Shown here in pieces: positions 43,660 to 55,186 of a stretch of 64,000 bases of DNA. The number at the start of each line of letters is the position of its first letter. The first letter of the stretch is position 1. The notes beneath the pieces were generated by a model. It had not been told where the DNA came from and did no database searches. It was given only the letters and a program-made list of their open reading frames with translations. The DNA is from Paraspadella gotoi. Lineage: Eukaryota > Animalia > Chaetognatha. The DNA lies in the NCBI GenBank assembly GCA_051294375.1, contig CM119265.1, forward strand, positions 25,444,297 through 25,508,296. The letters run 5' to 3'. A program made the translations under genes and the position numbers.

Positions 43660-44451
43660 CCTTAAAAAAACTAATAAGTTCCACGTAAGAATTAGGGCGT
43701 TCTGACGACATTAAATTTCTTGTTTTATTTAGGAAGGCAAAAACTTGAAATGCGAAATGAACCAGTTTTTCAAAATGAAAATCGGCCATTTTTCTTTTTC
43801 CTTTTCTTATATCTCTTTCCTTTTTTTTTCTTTTTGGGATTCGACGTTCGGTTTGTGGGTCGTTCTTGTTTCAGTTATCGGAATTCGGCATGTACATTGT
43901 ACACGGTGGTTTATTAAAAATAAGTTACAAGTAAAAATATTTTCCTTTAAGACCCGCTTTTGGTTTTTATTCTAATTCTCTCTTCTTTTAGTTAGTATTT
44001 CGTTATCATTATCAGAATCACGAACTAAACGCTCCTAGTCACTCCACTTTTGATAAGGGATCTCTTTCGCCTTTAAACCTTCAAGTGGTTTTTGTTTTTC
44101 TCATTTGCTGATAAGAAAAAACTCAACCTTTTATAAAGTTCTTTTTTTATTTTAAATCTAACTCCAGGGAACAACGAGGTAAAAAACCGCCGGGAAAAAA
44201 GATCCAATATTAACAGGTATGATGACCGAAATGATATAGCAGTAAAAAATTAAAAATCCCTAAAACGATTCGATATGTGTAATACATATATCGAATAATT
44301 TTAATAATTTTAATTTTAATTATCTATGATAGATAGATATTTAAAATTATCTCCATCACTTTCCAGATGAACACCCCCGGAAAAATCTTATTAATTCCAC
44401 CCTACCGCGATTTTTCAAAGGATAAACAAAAATTAAAAAAATAAACAAATT

Positions 44452-47400
44452 ATGTCAACTGACGCTGACCTTGCGCCGATGGAATCAATACGAAAACACC
44501 GCGGCGCCGCTAAGAGGCGCCACGAAACGTCCGTCGAACGTCCGCGTCGCTCGGGCGCCGCCACGATCGGCTCCGTCCAATCAACCGACGCCGCGAAAAG
44601 ACGCCGGGAAGTGTCGACTGAACGCCCGAAACGTTCCGCCGCCGTCGCTGCCGCCGCTGCAGCCGCCGCTGCAGCGGCCGCTGCAGCCGCCAACTACGCC
44701 GCCGCCGATGACGACTCGACCGCCTCAGACAACGCCGGCAAAATCTCTTACGAAGCCCCTGACGTCAATCCGGATGACGCCGCCGACAACGCCTCTAGCG
44801 TCTCTCGTCCGAAACGCGTCAAGTCTCTTCGTTTAGCGAAGGAACCGGCGACGAAAGACTCGACGAAAAGAGTCAACAAAGCGAAGGAGAACGAGAAAGA
44901 GGAGAACGATGGAAGAAAGGAGAACGAGGGTGTTGAAAAGGAGAACGAGAGAAAGGAAACGACGACGACGAAGACGACGTCGGCAGCCGACGAGGTGTTG
45001 CGGGAGATGGTGGAGAAGATCGTGGAGGCGGAGGGAGAATCTACGACTAAAGCGGACGAGCCGTTCGACGATCTCGGCAACGTCTTCACTCGTTCTTGGC
45101 GATCGACAACTAAGATCGAACCTGATGCAGGAGCCGACGCCTCAGCAGCCGTAGACGACGCAGCCTTCGGCCCGCCAGCGTCGCCGCAATCCTCCAGATC
45201 TTCCTCCAAGTCTTCGCATCGATCCTTTCTGCTCAATCTGCCCGCCAAATCGGCGGACAAGACGACGGCGCAGGTGCTGCCCTTCGAGGTGACGCCGCTG
45301 CGCAACCTGCAGCAAATGCCGCCGCTGCTACATCAGGATCAGCTCAAGCGGGAGATCTCCGGGGAGCCGGAAGACATTGGCCAAATCATGGAGTCGCTGC
45401 CGAAGAATACGAGGAACATCTACATCGTGGATTCCAAGTTGAAGGATCTGGAAGAGAAGTTGATCGAAGGGGAAATGGGAGGAGGTGGAGGAGGAGGTGG
45501 AGCCATTACTGAAGGCGTTGGGACCACGCCCATCCCTGTAGAGACTCAGAAATCCACGAGCGACCGACCTATGGAACCATCCGCCTGTCGGATCAAACCC
45601 AGCGTCTTCAAGAATAATCAAGACTGTCGCCTGATTCAGTCCAAATTGGCCAGGAAGAAGTTCCTCGTCAAACTGGCCATGTCGGAGCGGAACGCGGCCG
45701 AGGAGGGCGCTGGGGTGCAGCCGAATCGAGAGAGCGGCGTCACGGAGGGTGAGACGAGGACGCCGAGGGCGGAGATCGGCGTCGATTCGACGCCGGGTTC
45801 CACGCCCACCGACACGCCGGCGTCGACGCCGCCGCTTAAAGTGCAGACCGTCTCCGTTGAAGTGCAGACGGATTTGCAGGAGGAAGCGTCCAGGGGTAAA
45901 TAAATTAAATTCTTGTTATCAAAAAATATAATTCTTCGAATCAAGAAAGGAACTAAAATAGTATGTTTTAAAATTTTTTTAATAAAAACATTTTTAAAAG
46001 TTTTACAAATTAATTAAATAATTTTCTTATTTCACTTCCAACTCCTAGCGACAACATCGGATCGAGAAGCGAGGATCGAAAGTCTCACGATCGCGAATCA
46101 AACGAACATCGAAGGTTTTATCGAAGCTTTGGAGCCGGAGTGTCGATCGATGACAGACTTTGAGAGGGAAGAGAAAAAGATCATTTACCTCAAGGTAAGG
46201 CCACTGGTCAGGTCGGGTCAAGTTATATTTTCTATCCCAACTGATGAAAAGAAAAACAGGAAATCTAGAAAATGCTATCTTTTTTTACGAATTCAACAGC
46301 GAATTGATCAGCCTGAAATAACTAAGAAAAAATAAAATTATTCGTACCTTTTTTCTAAACAATATTCAAACTGCCTTCCAGGAAATGGAACTGGCCAGCT
46401 TCAAAGAGTACTCCAAGCTCAAATCCATCAGGCGCCTGATAGAAAAGAGGTTGGAAGACAGAATCGCCCACAGGCCGGAACAGGCGGTCAAACCCGGCCA
46501 CAACACCGAAGTCGTCATCTTCGACGACGATCGAAGATCTTCGGCAGGCGACAGCGCCGGTAGCCCCGCCGCTGGAGAAATGGTTCGGAGCGCCGGAAGG
46601 ACTACGTCGCCGGCCGCGCCCATCGCTCGTAAAGACGACGCTCGTTTGGCGTCGCCGGAAAGAGCGATGGAACAAGTGACTCCGTATTATCCCCCGAGGC
46701 CGACGATGCCATCCGGATTTCCTACGGGCCACGCCCCACACGGAAACGGTCACGTGATGCCCCCGGCGGCGCCATCGTTCGGCGGTCGCATGATCGCTCC
46801 TAAACCGTTTGTCAGCGGAAGGCCGATGACCGCGGCGCGCCCTATCGGACTTACGGCGCCGATTAACGACAGCGGCGTCATCAAGTACACGGACAAGGCG
46901 TCGGTCGTGGGGATCGGTCGGCCAGGCGTCGCTCACGGAACGCTCGGCGGCGTCGCGGGAAACGGCGCGATTCTCTTGGGGTCCCATCAGAGATTGGCGC
47001 CGCCTTCTGGACAGCAAGATCACAACAGCAGTTCGGGACAGTCGGAGAAACATGATAAAGGTACGTTTAATGTTGAAATATTTATTTAAAATAATTTGAT
47101 TTGGCAAATGAATGAATGAATGAATGAATGAATGAATGAATAATTAAATTAAATTAAATTAATTAACAAATTTAGGCGACAAATTAAATTAATTAGTGAA
47201 TTAATGAAAGAATAAATGAATAACTTAATGATTGAATCAATAATTCATTGAATGAATAAATAAAATAATTAATGGAGTCATTAGTTTAATCTATCAATCA
47301 ATTAATTAATTCGAGACACGTTAATAAATCAATGAATGATTGAATGAATGATAGAGAAAATTTAATGAGTAAATGAATCAATTAATTAATCAATCAATCA

Positions 47401-49309
47401 AGCATTCAATCAAGCAATCAATCAATAAATCAATCTAATCCATCTCTCCAAGGCCTCGTCGACGTGGAACAAAAGATCAAAGAGGCCGAGACGCAAAAGA
47501 CGATGGCGAACGTCCTCTCGCTGAAGGGCAAGAAAGGCGCCTCCGTCGCGCCTCTGGTGCATCCCGCGCGGACGATCCCCTTCGCCCCCAGAGCTCCCAC
47601 TATGTCTCCGCCGCATCGAAATCCGCCGCCAGCGTACTACCAGAGAACCCGCCTCACCCCCTTGCGTCATCAGCTGCCGCCGGGGGTCGGGGCGCCGTTG
47701 AGGATTCCACAGTATCAGCCGCTTCCGCCGCAGAGCAGAATATCGCCTCGGCAGGCGTCTCCGCAGTCTTTTCCTCCGCCGCAGCATCAACATATACTCT
47801 CTCCGCCGCAACAGCAGCTTCAGCAGCAGCAGCAAGGTTCCTTGCCTTTTCCCGCGGGTTTTCAGGGAACGAGAGACCGACAACCGACTTTCGCCGTCGG
47901 TCAAAGGACGACGATCGGTCGGGCGAGGGAACGGGCGGAGGCGATGGGGAAGGCGGAGGATGGGCGGGCTAGGATGGAGGAGGGGCGGGCTAGGGTGGAA
48001 CAGGAGCGGAGTAGAGTGGAGGAAGGGGAGAGCTCCACTAAAACTGTCGTCAAGGAAGAGAACGAGCCGACGTCGTTGTGCTCCAGGTGCAAGAAGGTCG
48101 CCGAATACGCTTGCTCCAGATGCAGAGAGGTGAGGAAAGGGTTAGAAGTAAGGAATAAGGAATCGACATTCTCTTTACTTTTCTTATCACATTTTCGTCT
48201 TCATAATTTTATTTCAAAAGTTTCAAAGAACAATTTATGGACATCAATTAATCTTATCGTATCTCTCGATCAATACAAAGTATTTCATTTCATGTTGAGC
48301 TGAAAAAAAAACAGTGACCGTCAAACGTCAAAAATATTTTTTCATGATCACTAAATATAGCATTAAAAAAATTAGTAACTTTTGTTTAACTATTCACAAC
48401 TAATCATTAATATGAAAATCTGAGTCTTGTTTCCTAGGAAAAGAGTTAAATTTCTATTCAGATTCTGTTTATCATTCAAGATGTTTTTATTGTTAAAAAT
48501 GAAAATTGAATACTACCAGAAATAGCTGATAGGCCTGAGCCAGCAGGCACCATTTCCTCTTCATTTCTCCTCATCCTCTTTCCCGGAGATCCAGGGTCGA
48601 GTCCAGGGTTTAGGTTTTTCATTCACACTCCGGCACTTTTTTTCCAAAGAAGCCCCCTTGCTGCGGCTCCTGAAGCAGCGGATCCAAACACACGCACAAA
48701 ACTTGTCTCTTTTGCTACTTCCATCGTCGTATTATGCGTCACTCCTTTTGTCGTCGCTCTCACCGTCGCAACTGCTTCCTCCATTGTTCAAATTATCGTC
48801 GTCGTTTCTGTCGATCCCGATCCTGACGGAGGCTTAATTCTTTCTCTCGCTGAGTCACCCAGCAAGCCAGAATTTTATTGTTGCAAAAGTAGCATCGGGA
48901 AAAATGACACTAATCCCTAACCCTAATCCCAACCCTAATCCCTAACCCAAATCACAACCCTAATCCAAAACCCTAATCCCAACCCTAATCCCTAATATCT
49001 ATCCCTTAAACTAACCTTATCCCTAACCGAAACCCTAAACAATTAATCCATAGTTCAAATTATCGTCGTCGTTTTTGTCGATCCCGATCCTGACTCTAAT
49101 TCATCCAGCAAGAGAGAGAGCGAGAGAGATTCGCTGCTCCGTCATACGGCAAGGGGGCATCGATGATTGAAAAGGCTTGTAGTTTTCGTTAAAGACTACA
49201 CCTTATATTTATTTTCTCTTTTTTTTTCTAGGCTCGCTACTGCGGTTCCGAGTGCCAAGTCAGTCATTGGAAAGAAATTCACATGCACGAATGTCAACTG
49301 ATTGATTGA
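44452..49309 (+). CDS. MYND-type zinc finger protein (5 exons, ~1007 aa, mostly low complexity)
   Basis: Exons 44452-45895, 46049-46194, 46382-47060, 47453-48129, 49232-49309. GT-AG introns with phases 1,0,1,0 give one open frame of 3024 nt. The spliced C-terminus CSRCKKVAEYACSRCRE|ARYCGSECQVSHWKEIHMHEC fits the MYND consensus. AATAAA lies at ~49345. Confidence 0.92.
48910..49040 (+). repeat. Degenerate interstitial CCCTAA-like tract (similar tracts at ~9923-10050, 16995-17170, 33660-33830)
   Basis: Mixed CCCTAA/CCTAAT/CCCAA units. Confidence 0.8.
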
Positions 49310-49988: not shown

Positions 49989-52900
49989 CTACTTCTTCCT
50001 CCCGGACTCCTCTTCTCTCAACAACGCCAAGAGGATCGTCCGGTAATCCCCGCTCGTGTCGTCCGCGATCCACTCGCCCAATGATCCCTTGAAGGCCTTC
50101 TGGAACTCCTCGCCGATCTGCACCAAGTCCACTTCCGATCTGGAGACGATGATTCGAATGAGCTCGTCGTCCGAGGTGCCCATGCCCTTCATTGCCCGCT
50201 GCAGCTGCCCGGCGAAGAATGCTGCTCTGTTTCGAACGCAGCGGACGACGGCGAGCATGCTGCGTTTCAAGTCTCCCGACATTTCGGATTTGATTGAATC
50301 TTCGATGTCCTTCTTGGAGACTTTTTGGTATTCGTCGAAAGTCAATCTGTGGGCGGGTGGGGGAAGTGGCGTGGTTGGAAGGATTTGGTTGGATTTGGTC
50401 GGATTTATTGAGATTTGGTGAGTTTTGGGCGGATTTAGAGATCTATATATCAAGCCTGTCCAAAGTCAGGGGCAAGATTGCTGGTTTATTAATTAAAATA
50501 CTAAATAAATATTTTTGTGAGTTGGAAATAGATTCAAAGATTACTCAACCTCAACAAGAAACTTATACATATAATATGAAATATAATCGTAAAATAAAAC
50601 TTAGCTTTGATTCACTCCTTCCTCCATAATCTTCGTGTAATCTCTCTTCCATTCTCCATTTAAAATTTTTTATTTGTTTAATCAGAAATAATTTTAAGAT
50701 TTCCGGTTTTGAAATTATTACTTCAGGAGAGAAACCGGTTAATCAGGTTTTTACGAACCAGATTATAATTTGGAACAAGAAATTCGCCGTCAATTATGGG
50801 GAATGAAGCGAAAACCTGAAAGTTGAGCTGACTACATTAATTCCTCTAAAATATGAATCCAAATCTATAATTACACGAACGATTGTTAATAAATAAAAGC
50901 GAATACAACTCTGTTCATTGTTTATGTCTATTAATAATCTCAGCTTTATCGGACTCAGGAGGAAATCAAACCTATAAAAAAAATTGAAAAATGAAGGAAA
51001 ATAATAATAATACATACAAAGGAAAAACTGACAACCCCCCCAAAAATAATATTTGGTGAAGACACTTAATATCATTTCATCACACTTGCTCCATCAATAA
51101 CATAAAGAACAACAAAAGCAGCAACAGCAACAGCATAATCAATTAATCAGCACGGAACAGCAGCAGCGCCGCACCTGAGCTGCGACGGGCTCCTCGACGC
51201 GAGGATAACGTTAAAGCGCGACTCGTCCGTTCCCCACGACTTCTCTCCAGCGTCGAAGAGGGCGCGCGCGTCCGTCTTGGCTTTTTCGCGGTCGATCTCG
51301 AGGCTTTCGCTGCGGTGGCCTGGGGGGGGGTTGGGGGAGGTTGGGTGGGAAAGTAGATGGAAGGGAAACTGTAGGAAATGAAAAGATATGACAAATACTG
51401 TGAGCTTGAGGTAATGTGACTCCCTTGCCCTTTCATCCTGTAACAAGGTAATCATCAGCCTCTTGAAGTGATTCCCTTGCCCTCTCACCCTGTAACAAAG
51501 AAACCATCAGCCTCTTGAAATGACTTTCTTGCCATCTCACCCTGTAACAAGGCAACCATCAGCCTCTTGACATGACTTTCTTGCCCGCTCACCCTGTAAC
51601 AATTCAACCATCAGCCTCTTGAAGTGAGCTCCTTGCCCCCTCACCCTGTAACAAGACGACCATCAGCCTCTTGAAGTGACTCCCTTGCCCTCTCACACTG
51701 TAACAAGCCTTTTGAAGTGACTTCCTTAACCTCTCACCCTGTAACAATTCAACCATCAGCCTCTCGAAGTGATTCCCTTGCCCCCTCACCCTGTAACAAG
51801 GCGACCATCAGCCTCTTGAAGTGATTCCCTTGCCCCCTCACCCTGTAACAACGTGACCATCAGCCTCTTGAAGTGACTCCTTCTTGCCCTCTCACACTGT
51901 AACCAAGCACCTTCTTGAAAGTGACTTTCCATCCTAACCTCTCACCCTGTAACAATTCAACCATCAGCCTCTTCTGAAAGTGATTCCCTTGCCCCTCACC
52001 CTGTAACAGGCGACCATCAGCCTCTTGAAGTGATTCCTTGCCCCCTCACCTGTAACAACGACCATCAGCCTCTTGAAGTGACTCCCTTGCCCCTCTCACA
52101 CTGTAACAACACCATCAGCCTCTCAAAGTGATTCCTTGCCCCCTCACCCTGTAACAAGGCGACCATCAGCCTCTGAAGTGATTTCCTTTGCCCCCTCACC
52201 CTGTAACAAGGCGACCATCAGCTCTTTAAAATGTCCCGACGTGTCGTCGACGATGTCTTTCTCCAAGTCTCGCGCGTAGAGCCTCTTGTAGGCCTGCTTG
52301 ATGTCGGCGACCTCTTGGTTCCCTCTAGTGCAGAGAATCTCGATGAGGGCGTCCTCGTCGGTGCCCGCCCCTTTGACCGCCTTGCGCAGTTCCGACGCCG
52401 CGTAGTCCGCCGGCGGGGATAGCGTCGCGAGGACCACCTGAGGAAAACGGGAGTGAGGAAATATAAATATAAATATAAATAAATATAATTAAATATAAAA
52501 ATATAAAAATAAATATAAATATAAATAAATATAAAAATATAAATATAAATATAAAAATAAATAAATATAAATAAATATAATTAAATAAAGTAACTCAGAT
52601 ATATAATTTATAACAAAGTACAAATATTTAATTAATTAAAATGTATCAGAGCTGGTTAAAGCGATAGAATATTTATTTAAACTTCGTAATAGTGTTTACT
52701 TCGCCGCCCCCCTCACCCTGTCCAATCTTCACCTTCAACAGATTCCCGCTCAACTCGCTCTTCAACTCCGCCTTCAAATCTTTGCCGAACATCTGCTTGA
52801 AGACCCGCTGCACTTCAAGCCGTTGATCGTTGGACCGATAGGCGAGGACGTCGACGATCGCCCCTTCGTCGGTCCCGAATCCTTTCATGGATTTGCGCAG

Positions 52901-52990
52901 CGCCTCCGCGTCAGCCTCGGCGTCGAAGTCTTCGGAGGGCGTGACGGTGCCTTCGTACTCTACGGCGTCTTCGTATTCGGGGATGCGTTC
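49989..52990 (-). CDS. Annexin core (exons 4-7): four annexin repeats with type II Ca2+-binding motifs
   Basis: Spliced translation [31 protein letters not shown]...[23 protein letters not shown]...[22 protein letters not shown]...[23 protein letters not shown]...[15 protein letters not shown] matches the canonical annexin consensus. Confidence 0.97.
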
Positions 52991-54923
52991 CTGAAGTGGC
53001 GGAGGGGAGAGGGGGGGGCGTGAGCAGCAGGAATGTGACACTGTTTTTAGTCGACGCATTTTTGTGAAGAAAAAAATATAAGTTTGATCCTTTCTTTCTT
53101 TATCTTTTTTTAAAACATTTGACAGCTTAAATTGCACTGGATCATGGCCTACTTTCTTTTTTTGTTAGTTAGTTTTTTTAGTTTATTTATATTTTTCTTT
53201 ATTTTTCTTTTCTTTTCCTCCATAATTTTACAAAACCTCTTTTCTTAGGGGATTTTTCAAATCTTTGTTGAAAGTCCAGGTTTCTGTGTGAAGAAACGTA
53301 ATCGTGTGAAAGACATCAAAAGGGTTGAAGGAAAGACGCCTCATGACCCTATTTCATGAACTTCTTGGTGCTTACTTGGTGCTTGCTTCGTGCTTGCTTG
53401 CTTCCATGCTTGCTTCCTCTCTCCCGCCATTACCTTCTTTCTGGCCGGCGGCGGCGGTTTCTCCTTCTTCTTCTTCTCCTGCGGCGGCGGAGGCGGCGGC
53501 GGCGCTTCCTCCTCTTCCTCTTCCATCGGCTCCTCTTCCTCCTCCCCTTCGAACGTCACCCCAGGCTTGGCCTTTCCGCCCCAATTCTTGGGCTGTGCCC
53601 GCTCGGGCGGCTTCCTCTTTCTCAGCCCATCGGGCCGCGCGAATTTGAGGAAGACGAGATATCCGTCTTCGGCGTCTTCCAGGTCGGCGTCGAGAAGGCG
53701 CCCAAGTCGCGGCTCCGCCAGCGCCGCGCGAAAATCGGGATGGCGCTGAGCGAACGCGGTAAGCTGCTTGGCAACGTGATTGGCCTTTAGATTGGAAGGG
53801 GGGGAGTGAGTAAAGATTGAGGTCTTTCTGAATATACACTTTTTCTTTTTTTTTTTAAAAACTCTCCCCTATCACTTAATACTACAAAATGCAAATGATA
53901 TTTTCGTCAAAAAAAAAAAAAAAAGCAAACCTGATCCTTCCAGTTTCCGTTTCCTGCGCTGACCATCGACGGCGGGTCGGGCCGCTGCATCTGACGCTGC
54001 ATCATCAGCTGCGTTTGATGCTGCTGCTGCTTCTCGCGATGCAGCTCCTCGACGACGCGTCTAATCTCCGACAGCGTCATGTCCCTCGTCTCCTCCAGAC
54101 GTCGCATCATCTTCTCCGTCTCGAATCCGACGTTGGAAGGCGTCGTCCACGGAGCCATCGGCGGCGGCGCAGGATTCGATGGCGGCGGCGTCGACGGCGG
54201 CAGCGGCGGCGGCGTCAACGCTCGAGGCGTCGACGGCGCGAAAGTGACGCCGCCTCGGTCGTTGGTGGAGAAGCCGGACCACGACGCCGGTAGAGGACCC
54301 CACACGTTGATCTGAGTCCCGGAATAGTTGGTCGGCGTTCTGGGATCGGCGTCTTCCGGCCGCGGCGACGTCGGCGGGTGCCAGGCGTCCTTTGGCGGGG
54401 CGGAAGAAGGCGTCGGTCCGCGTCGGGAAGGGGTCGGCTTTGAATTGTCGGCTTGGTCGTCTTCGTCGTCGTCCAAAGTGACAGTCTCTTCGTCAAGATC
54501 GAATTCGACGTCGACTTCCTTCGAGTCTTTCGTCGCGTCCACGAAGAGGGTCCGGGTGTTGACGGGGCTCTCCCGCATACCGTCGCGGGTCACGGCCATC
54601 GCCTTGGGGTGTTGAATGAGGTTGGGTGGGGAGGTGGATGGGTGGAGAAGTTGGAAATCCCGTACAAAATTTACCTTGACCTCCCGCTTTCCCGGATGTA
54701 ATTGAAATGGCGCTTTGTACTTGTGGGTCACGTGACGACCTCCGTATTTGGTCTTGAAGGGCAGAGGCTTCGAGCCGTCCGTCGTGAAGTAGATTTTGCA
54801 GCCGGCGGACTCCGTTTCAGTCCACGAACAGTGCCGATCCACGGACGTACTGGGGTTGTCCGGGTACGTACGTCGGACGGGGGTTTATCGTTGGGGGGAT
54901 GATAGCGCCCGCGGTGGGGCCAT
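49989..54923 (-). CDS. Annexin with DZANK1-like N-terminal region (7 exons, ~756 aa)
   Basis: Exons 54923-54675, 54602-53931, 53784-53434, 52990-52733, 52437-52200, 51319-51175, 50346-49989. All introns are GT-AG with matching phases (0,0,0,0,1,2). The C-terminal part has four annexin repeats ([49 protein letters not shown]). The N-terminal part has [30 protein letters not shown] and [24 protein letters not shown]. Exon 1 has an in-frame TAA at 54887-54885, explainable by two compensating homopolymer indels. Confidence 0.9.
51405..52232 (-). repeat. 52-bp minisatellite (~16 units) derived from the annexin exon 5/intron 5 junction
   Basis: Unit on the minus strand is CACTTCAAGAGGCTGATGGTCGCCTTGTTACAGG|GTGAGGGGGCAAGGGAAT. 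The TGTAAC core recurs 16 times between 51439 and 52202. Confidence 0.95.
53434..54923 (-). CDS. DZANK1-like N-terminal exons 1-3 (FN3-associated/chitobiase C-terminal-like domain, P/Q-rich linker, second conserved block)
   Basis: [10 protein letters not shown] and [24 protein letters not shown] resemble the DZANK1 N-terminal domain as recalled. [39 protein letters not shown] resembles the DZANK1 block preceding its ankyrin repeats. No CxxC zinc ribbons or ankyrin repeats are seen. Confidence 0.75.
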
Positions 54924-55173: not shown

Positions 55174-55186
55174 CTCGCTTAGCAAC
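55174..55186. promoter_or_regulatory. Candidate RFX half-site upstream of the annexin-fusion gene
   Basis: CTCGCTTAGCAAC has a perfect TAGCAAC half-site, ~250 bp upstream of the ATG at 54923. Confidence 0.3.

Follow-up and report, generated by a model that had tools for sequence, protein, structure and literature searches.

A 64,000-nt stretch of the genome of the chaetognath Paraspadella gotoi (assembly GCA_051294375.1, contig CM119265.1, positions 25,444,297-25,508,296; hereafter the window, whose own coordinates are used below) contains, on the minus strand, a seven-exon gene (49989-54923) that encodes an annexin core fused to an N-terminal half which, on profile evidence, derives from DZANK1. 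This is a real gene, and the fusion family to which it belongs is a conserved, domain-shuffled and apparently undescribed one, annexin by its core and DZANK1-derived, but not DZANK1 by membership. Once indels in the assembled exon 1 are corrected, the protein comprises 756 residues and starts with Met-Pro, as its relatives do. About 436 residues precede the annexin core, close to the approximately 430 of the original prediction, a reading of this gene made from the DNA letters alone.

The two halves of the protein

Two separate blocks of the N-terminal half are collinear with DZANK1, as had been predicted. Block 1 (residues 1-105; 54537-54923, minus strand, spanning intron 1) is a DZANK1-type Fn3_assoc beta-sandwich, detected by Pfam in the exon 1 frame at E 2e-6 and, over 103 residues, 40% identical to human DZANK1 and 47% identical to Priapulus DZANK1. 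Block 2 (residues 297-360; 53626-53963, minus strand, spanning intron 2) corresponds to the DZANK1 central domain, is predicted to fold into two helices and a beta-hairpin, and matches no Pfam family. The pattern SxGxG...EP[KR]xG of the DZANK1 central block is present, with a BLAST match to bat DZANK1 at E 2e-11.

The specificity of this homology emerges from profiles built in both directions. A profile of the N-termini of 48 relatives, from which the window protein was excluded, scored 124-130 bits for block 1 and 57-63 bits for block 2 against bat, mouse and human DZANK1, with the order kept, compared with at most 26 bits for three Fn3-repeat proteins, and 0 of 200 shuffles scored above 0. 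In reverse, profiles of 57 DZANK1 sequences gave 91 bits (block 1) and 57 bits (block 2) against the window protein, and at most 47 bits and under 0, respectively, against 26 Fn3-repeat proteins. Moreover, a PDB search with the N-terminal profile retrieved human DZANK1 (entry 11xu) at E 9e-48 with both blocks matched, the sole other row standing at E 0.74, and the best 120 of the 1011 matches in one homolog search were mammalian DZANK1 only. Structure models of two relatives display a beta-sandwich and a disordered linker, with block 2 forming a domain of two helices and a hairpin, and the predicted local distance difference test score (pLDDT) of one relative's model is about 90 for both blocks. 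Foldseek with the N-terminal model yielded no match at E 0.001 or better, weak Fn3/Ig-like folds being all that appeared, and the ESM Atlas search with this half retrieved generic Fn3_assoc clusters, under 0.9. Judged by these profiles, both blocks are DZANK1-derived by specific homology. A generic Fn3 match for the N-terminus, which the original prediction had named as one outcome that would count against it, is ruled out by the DZANK1-specific scores in both directions.

The C-terminal half carries four annexin repeats (Pfam PF00191, found in exons 4-7), and the type II calcium sites are kept by motif in all of them, with a G-x-G-T loop (W-G-T in repeat 3) and the acidic caps ELSG, DTSG, EMSG and DTSG in repeats 1-4, exactly as first described. 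These sites are also kept in most repeats of the nine relatives inspected. Compared with solved annexins, exon 7 matches A3, XII, A4, A6 and others, and 73 sequences were retrieved at E 1e-20 or better. Annexin cores with type II calcium sites bind acidic phospholipids upon a rise in calcium; by its motifs, the window protein has a canonical core of this kind, for which calcium-dependent lipid binding would be expected from established annexin biology. The protein thus shares with annexins A3, A4, A6 and XII the C-terminal four-repeat core, the loops and the acidic caps, but differs from them in its 436-residue N-terminus with two folded domains. There is no second annexin tetrad within the window, and a stop codon follows repeat 4. 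When compared with the first and second tetrads of eight-repeat relatives, the window core gave 12 versus 24, with small score differences. Membership in annexin A6 by repeat number was considered and rejected, since the window protein has four repeats and not eight in two tetrads.

With DZANK1, the window protein shares the N-terminal Fn3_assoc domain and the central helix-helix-hairpin block in identical order, whereas it lacks the zinc ribbons (the NINL-binding part), the ankyrins and any detectable TQTxGLF motif or its helix, and has instead a family-specific [11 protein letters not shown] motif and the annexin core. The predicted loss of zinc ribbons and ankyrins is borne out, an annexin core standing in their place: CxxC was found neither in the N-terminal half of the window protein nor in those of 48 relatives, the zinc region has no match in 57 proteins, and among these 57 only the starfish and hemichordate members match ankyrin repeats. 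Likewise, a profile of the TQTxGLF motif, which is the likely LC8 site of DZANK1, and its following helix, made from 46 DZANK1 proteins, reaches at best 1.8 bits in protostome fusion proteins, compared with 35 bits in the starfish and 28 bits in the hemichordate.

The region between the two blocks contains the family motif [13 protein letters not shown] (residues 173-185; 54297-54335, minus strand) within a disordered segment, where it had been predicted. Its GTQ core is found in 47 of 48 relatives, in homolog searches that partly select for the motif, and in monomer models the motif is undocked (pLDDT about 40). The linker had been called P/Q-rich, which does not hold: it is Pro/Thr-rich (P 17%, T 11%, Q 5%) and its Gln is confined to one short run. 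Against the DZANK1 TQT profile, the motif gives no match. In comparison with the LC8 anchor it has a T-Q-I core in disorder, but Tyr at -4 and Ser at -3, and Val at +1 in 4 of 65 sequences. According to the available text of the LC8 motif rules, residues that are bulky at -4 or small at -3 are disfavoured (PMC6607443). As read from sequence, LC8 binding by the family motif would be rather unlikely, with a chance of about one in four.

Distribution and origin of the family

The search for further proteins combining Fn3_assoc and annexin domains, which had been suggested as a check, found them in dozens of species. With exons 1-2 as query, 24 of 24 matches among longer proteins carry both domains. 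A chiton query returned 51 matches, namely 46 with both domains, one with annexin only, bat DZANK1 (E 8e-35) and three Fn3-repeat proteins. Named carriers include chitons, bivalves, gastropods, cephalopods, annelids, Lingula, nemerteans, Intoshia and trematodes, to which look-ups of 30 profile matches add Macrostomum, Schistosoma, Anoplocephala, Echinostoma and the ecdysozoan Priapulus. No fusion was found among the named matches in chordates, insects, nematodes, cnidarians or sponges, these matches forming no systematic genome survey. A profile search of 1.84 billion representatives retrieved 1675 proteins at E 0.001, the best 150 of which comprise, by heuristic labels, 11 annexin fusions, 12 fusion fragments, 64 DZANK1, 34 block-1 fragments and 29 others. 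The family is old and widespread, a point that the original prediction had overlooked together with the fact that most of the relatives found have eight repeats.

As had been anticipated, these relatives are filed in databases as 'annexin A6-like' or 'Annexin', or are unnamed. One ESM Atlas cluster named 'annexin A6-like' has 158 members, with annexin in 100% and Fn3_assoc in 98%. Among 57 proteins, eight repeats occur in 38, four in 12, and 0, 2, 3, 6 or 11 in the other seven; several of the odd counts are probably partial gene models. The label 'annexin A6-like' on eight-repeat relatives probably reflects repeat number, orthology aside. Several relatives of 1043-1159 residues sit on contigs of 3.3-5.2 kb, which we infer to be spliced transcripts. 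The window protein shares its N-terminal blocks, motif and core with the protostome Fn3_assoc-annexin family (Liolophura, Owenia, Lingula, Lineus, Macrostomum PAA61558.1, Priapulus XP_014664979.1), and its four repeats resemble those of nemertean and flatworm members, unlike the eight of most molluscs. In the model of Paragonimus skrjabini miyazakii (P0022), a long Gly/Tyr/Pro-rich stretch lies ahead of the core, presumably similar to the annexin A7/A11 tail; it may be chimeric or lineage-specific.

This architecture may already be listed in a phylogenomic account of atypical annexin domain organisation that Fernandez, Morgan and colleagues reportedly published in 2017. In the literature covered, which leaves out most subscription journals, no description of a DZANK1-annexin or Fn3-annexin protein was found, and the papers naming both DZANK1 and annexin are, by title and start of abstract, unrelated expression or proteome studies. 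The main-text passages of flatworm and parasite annexin surveys (PMC3795353 and PMC11195529) hold no mention of it, nor do those of an LC8 ciliary-interactome preprint (10.1101/2023.09.15.557927) and a review on planarian cilia (PMC10002865), although the supplements of these works could list members.

The relationship to DZANK1 was addressed with a tree of blocks 1 and 2 (171 columns; 36 rows, chosen from the 86 that were usable among 102). All 17 protostome-type fusion rows, with the window protein among them, form one group with support 100/99, and FastTree on all 86 rows supports the fusion group at 0.96; the tree leaves the place of the window protein within this group unsettled. Macrostomum, Tubulanus, Priapulus and Mya each possess the fusion together with a separate DZANK1. 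Because these four species have both genes, the fusion is a paralog of DZANK1, as had been proposed. DZANK1 orthology was rejected on the same grounds and on the separate clade of the fusion. When the window alone was searched by tblastn with Tubulanus DZANK1, matches fell in the fusion gene only.

A protein of the starfish Asterias rubens, XP_033629438.1 ('DZANK1-like', P0187), bears Fn3_assoc, the TQT motif, block 2, ankyrins and four annexin repeats, without zinc ribbons, and models of A. amurensis are near-identical to it. It has in common with the window protein the Fn3_assoc domain, the central block, the four-repeat core (58% identical), the lack of zinc ribbons and the Met-Pro start, a feature found in 52 of 67 fusion sequences and in 2 of 65 DZANK1 sequences. 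However, it retains ankyrins and the DZANK1-type TQT motif and is devoid of the family motif, while the reverse applies to the window protein. The starfish protein is sister to the fusion group with support 87/73, and a grouping with chordate DZANK1 was not rejected by the approximately unbiased test (p-AU 0.24). To judge from its domains, the starfish form is likely an intermediate of the domain shuffle. A single bilaterian origin of the fusion is likely, and independent fusion is possible. In the former case, a DZANK1 copy would have given up its zinc ribbons and acquired an annexin core, the ankyrins would then have been lost in protostomes, and the core would have doubled in some lineages. 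Other partial architectures occur: a protein of the hemichordate Glandiceps (P0184) is DZANK1-like, with neither zinc ribbons nor annexin, and the same holds for a Batillaria protein (P0192) and for P0246, the former of which groups with canonical mollusc DZANK1 and may reflect a gap in the gene model.

Gene structure and surroundings

All exons lie on the minus strand. The coding exon 1 (54675-54923) holds the ATG and most of the DZANK1-type Fn3_assoc domain. Exon 2 (53931-54602) encodes the end of this domain, the disordered Pro/Thr-rich linker with the family motif, short conserved helices and the start of the central block, whereas exon 3 (53434-53784) holds the remainder of block 2 and a charged Pro-rich spacer. 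The annexin core follows, with repeat 1 (KGFGT loop, E cap) in exon 4 (52733-52990), repeat 2 (KGAGT loop, D cap) in exon 5 (52200-52437), the first half of repeat 3 (WGTDE loop) in exon 6 (51175-51319), and the end of repeat 3 (E cap), repeat 4 (KGMGT loop, D cap) and the stop codon in exon 7 (49989-50346). The six introns are all GT-AG, in phases 0, 0, 0, 0, 1 and 2. The phase-consistent seven-exon gene of the original prediction therefore stands in its exons, introns and phases, but the assembled sequence is not one open frame, since exon 1 as assembled, read from the ATG at 54923, meets a stop at codon 13.

Four of four DNA runs from two studies differ from the assembly by eight one-base indels at 54815-54879 and by a two-base difference at 54919-54920. 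Because applying these differences opens the frame for 756 residues, the exon 1 indels are most likely errors of assembly GCA_051294375.1. Two further DNA runs (X1 and X6) present the same gapped exon 1 region. A pseudogene reading of exon 1 was ruled out, the indels being absent from other DNA runs of the species. The clustering of about nine indels and two substitutions in 105 bases of exon 1 (54815-54920) indicates that the base accuracy of the assembly is locally poor, and other gene models may break likewise. Farther downstream, a single contig of run X1, which may be the assembly's own sample, covers 52611-53086 and 53223-53855 and places exons 3 and 4 adjacent in the DNA.

Intron 5 contains a 52-bp minisatellite of 15.9 copies (51416-52226), the unit of which comprises the last codons of exon 5 and the splice donor. 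Each unit thus carries the exon 5 end and GT, which creates about a dozen extra donor sites. Runs X1 and X5 jump 403 bases of this minisatellite, so that either the copy number or the assembly differs.

A convergent neighbour on the plus strand (44437-48303) has long low-complexity open frames and, at about 48080-48130, a CxxC...CxxC stretch that we take to resemble the start of a MYND-type zinc finger; three of its frames gave no Pfam match. Sites of the form GTTGCYANG, similar to RFX X-box halves, number nine in the window against 1.1 expected (including 7594, 10708, 57571, 60623 and 55178), and three of them (10708, 57571, 60623) are full palindromic X-box-like matches without mismatch. The half-site at 55178-55186, 255 bases upstream of the gene, fails the full X-box pattern and, the pattern having been picked post hoc, is not used as evidence.

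Possible functions

We tentatively favour, at somewhat below an even chance and from domain content, the view that the fusion acts at the ciliary base as a tether of membrane to microtubules, switched by calcium, because two retained DZANK1 domains sit beside an intact annexin core. Like DZANK1 on transition-zone doublets, the DZANK1-derived blocks would have kept the ability to form dimers and to attach to a microtubule-based structure, and the disordered linker would bind a conserved partner through its [11 protein letters not shown] motif. Flexible spacers would let the annexin core reach the ciliary or periciliary membrane, and a rise in calcium would switch the core onto the acidic phospholipids of that membrane. 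With regard to DZANK1 itself, the accessible text of Dona et al. (PMC4617706) places it at the basal body and along microtubules, with DYNLL1/2 in its complex. Moreover, according to the available text of a 2026 bioRxiv preprint (10.64898/2026.06.11.731632), a DZANK1 dimer and an LC8 dimer are assigned to the outside of the A-microtubule in bovine transition-zone doublets, at protofilaments A06-A07; so assigned, DZANK1 is a structural component of the ciliary base that binds microtubules.

Several points weigh against a tether at the ciliary base. Data on expression, localisation or binding were found neither for the window gene nor for any relative. In the same preprint text, the helix between protofilaments A06 and A07 derives from the predicted DZANK1-LC8 complex (10.64898/2026.06.11.731632); this is probably the helix that follows the TQT motif, and the post-TQT segment went undetected in protostome fusion proteins, at 1.8 bits in the best case. 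That text also leaves unstated which DZANK1 residues form the globular dimer, and calls the doublet linker specific to mammalian multiciliated cells; as far as it goes, invertebrate transition zones may differ from mammalian ones. Furthermore, the family motif departs from two LC8 preferences, at positions -4 and -3. Planarian dzank1 RNA interference leads to fewer dopaminergic neurons (PMC13594227), where either paralog may have been the one targeted.

The main competing explanation, which we consider somewhat unlikely, is that of a non-ciliary annexin active in membrane repair, at the cortex or in secretion, in which the DZANK1 blocks were kept for dimerisation or protein binding after the ciliary docking parts had been lost. 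The DZANK1 parts with known or likely partners, i.e., zinc ribbons, TQT motif with its helix and ankyrins, are all missing, and canonical DZANK1 is still there for the ciliary job in the four species with both genes. Eight-repeat annexin cores such as that of annexin A6 suit the bridging of two membranes, and 38 of the 57 proteins have this repeat number. However, block 1 is still 40-47% identical to DZANK1 across phyla, which suggests a kept partner, and the named carriers are mostly heavily ciliated, with no insect or nematode among the named matches of an unsystematic survey.

A calcium-dependent cargo adaptor, linking vesicles to cytoplasmic dynein for ciliary transport via NINL or LC8, is improbable, although it draws on what is known of DZANK1: NINL and DYNLL1/2 bind to it, and in zebrafish that lose it retrograde transport is impaired, according to the accessible text of Dona et al. 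(PMC4617706). The T-Q-I core of the family motif, with Val at +1 in 4 of 65 sequences, resembles an LC8 anchor. Nevertheless, that text maps NINL binding to the zinc-finger domains of DZANK1 (PMC4617706), CxxC occurs in the N-terminal halves of 0 of 48 relatives, and the motif is unmatched by the DZANK1 TQT profile and fits LC8 poorly at -4 and -3. The predicted dynein transport through NINL consequently falls away, since the fusion lacks the NINL-binding zinc ribbons and its TQT motif and helix are undetectable too. Finally, it is very improbable that the N-terminal half has decayed or is a separate gene in Paraspadella gotoi, the annexin being translated alone and the fusion an annotation or assembly artefact: the assembled exon 1 does have a stop and several frameshifts and the exon 3/4 junction of this species is known from DNA alone, but other DNA runs free of the indels give an open frame, the junction is in phase 0 on both sides with canonical splice sites, and the architecture recurs in dozens of species, some of them on transcript-sized contigs.

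A broader version of the tether at the ciliary base, which we regard as unlikely but worth stating, is that an ancient bilaterian fusion, which protostomes and starfish retained and vertebrates lost, would be a calcium-gated link of transition-zone doublets to the ciliary membrane. Such a link would be a reversible counterpart of the Y-link, through which calcium would tighten or release the membrane at the ciliary base.

The window fusion gives a name to an unrecognised annexin subfamily that lies hidden as 'annexin A6-like' in many invertebrate genomes, and ties this subfamily to DZANK1. It touches on the means by which doublets are anchored to the ciliary membrane, and on the action of calcium at the base of the cilium. 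If the family were non-ciliary, it would still be a clear case of domain shuffling and a correction to database annotation. This one protein, of which one half likely docks on microtubules and the other would bind membranes in a calcium-dependent way, is directly testable in Macrostomum, planarians or annelid larvae.

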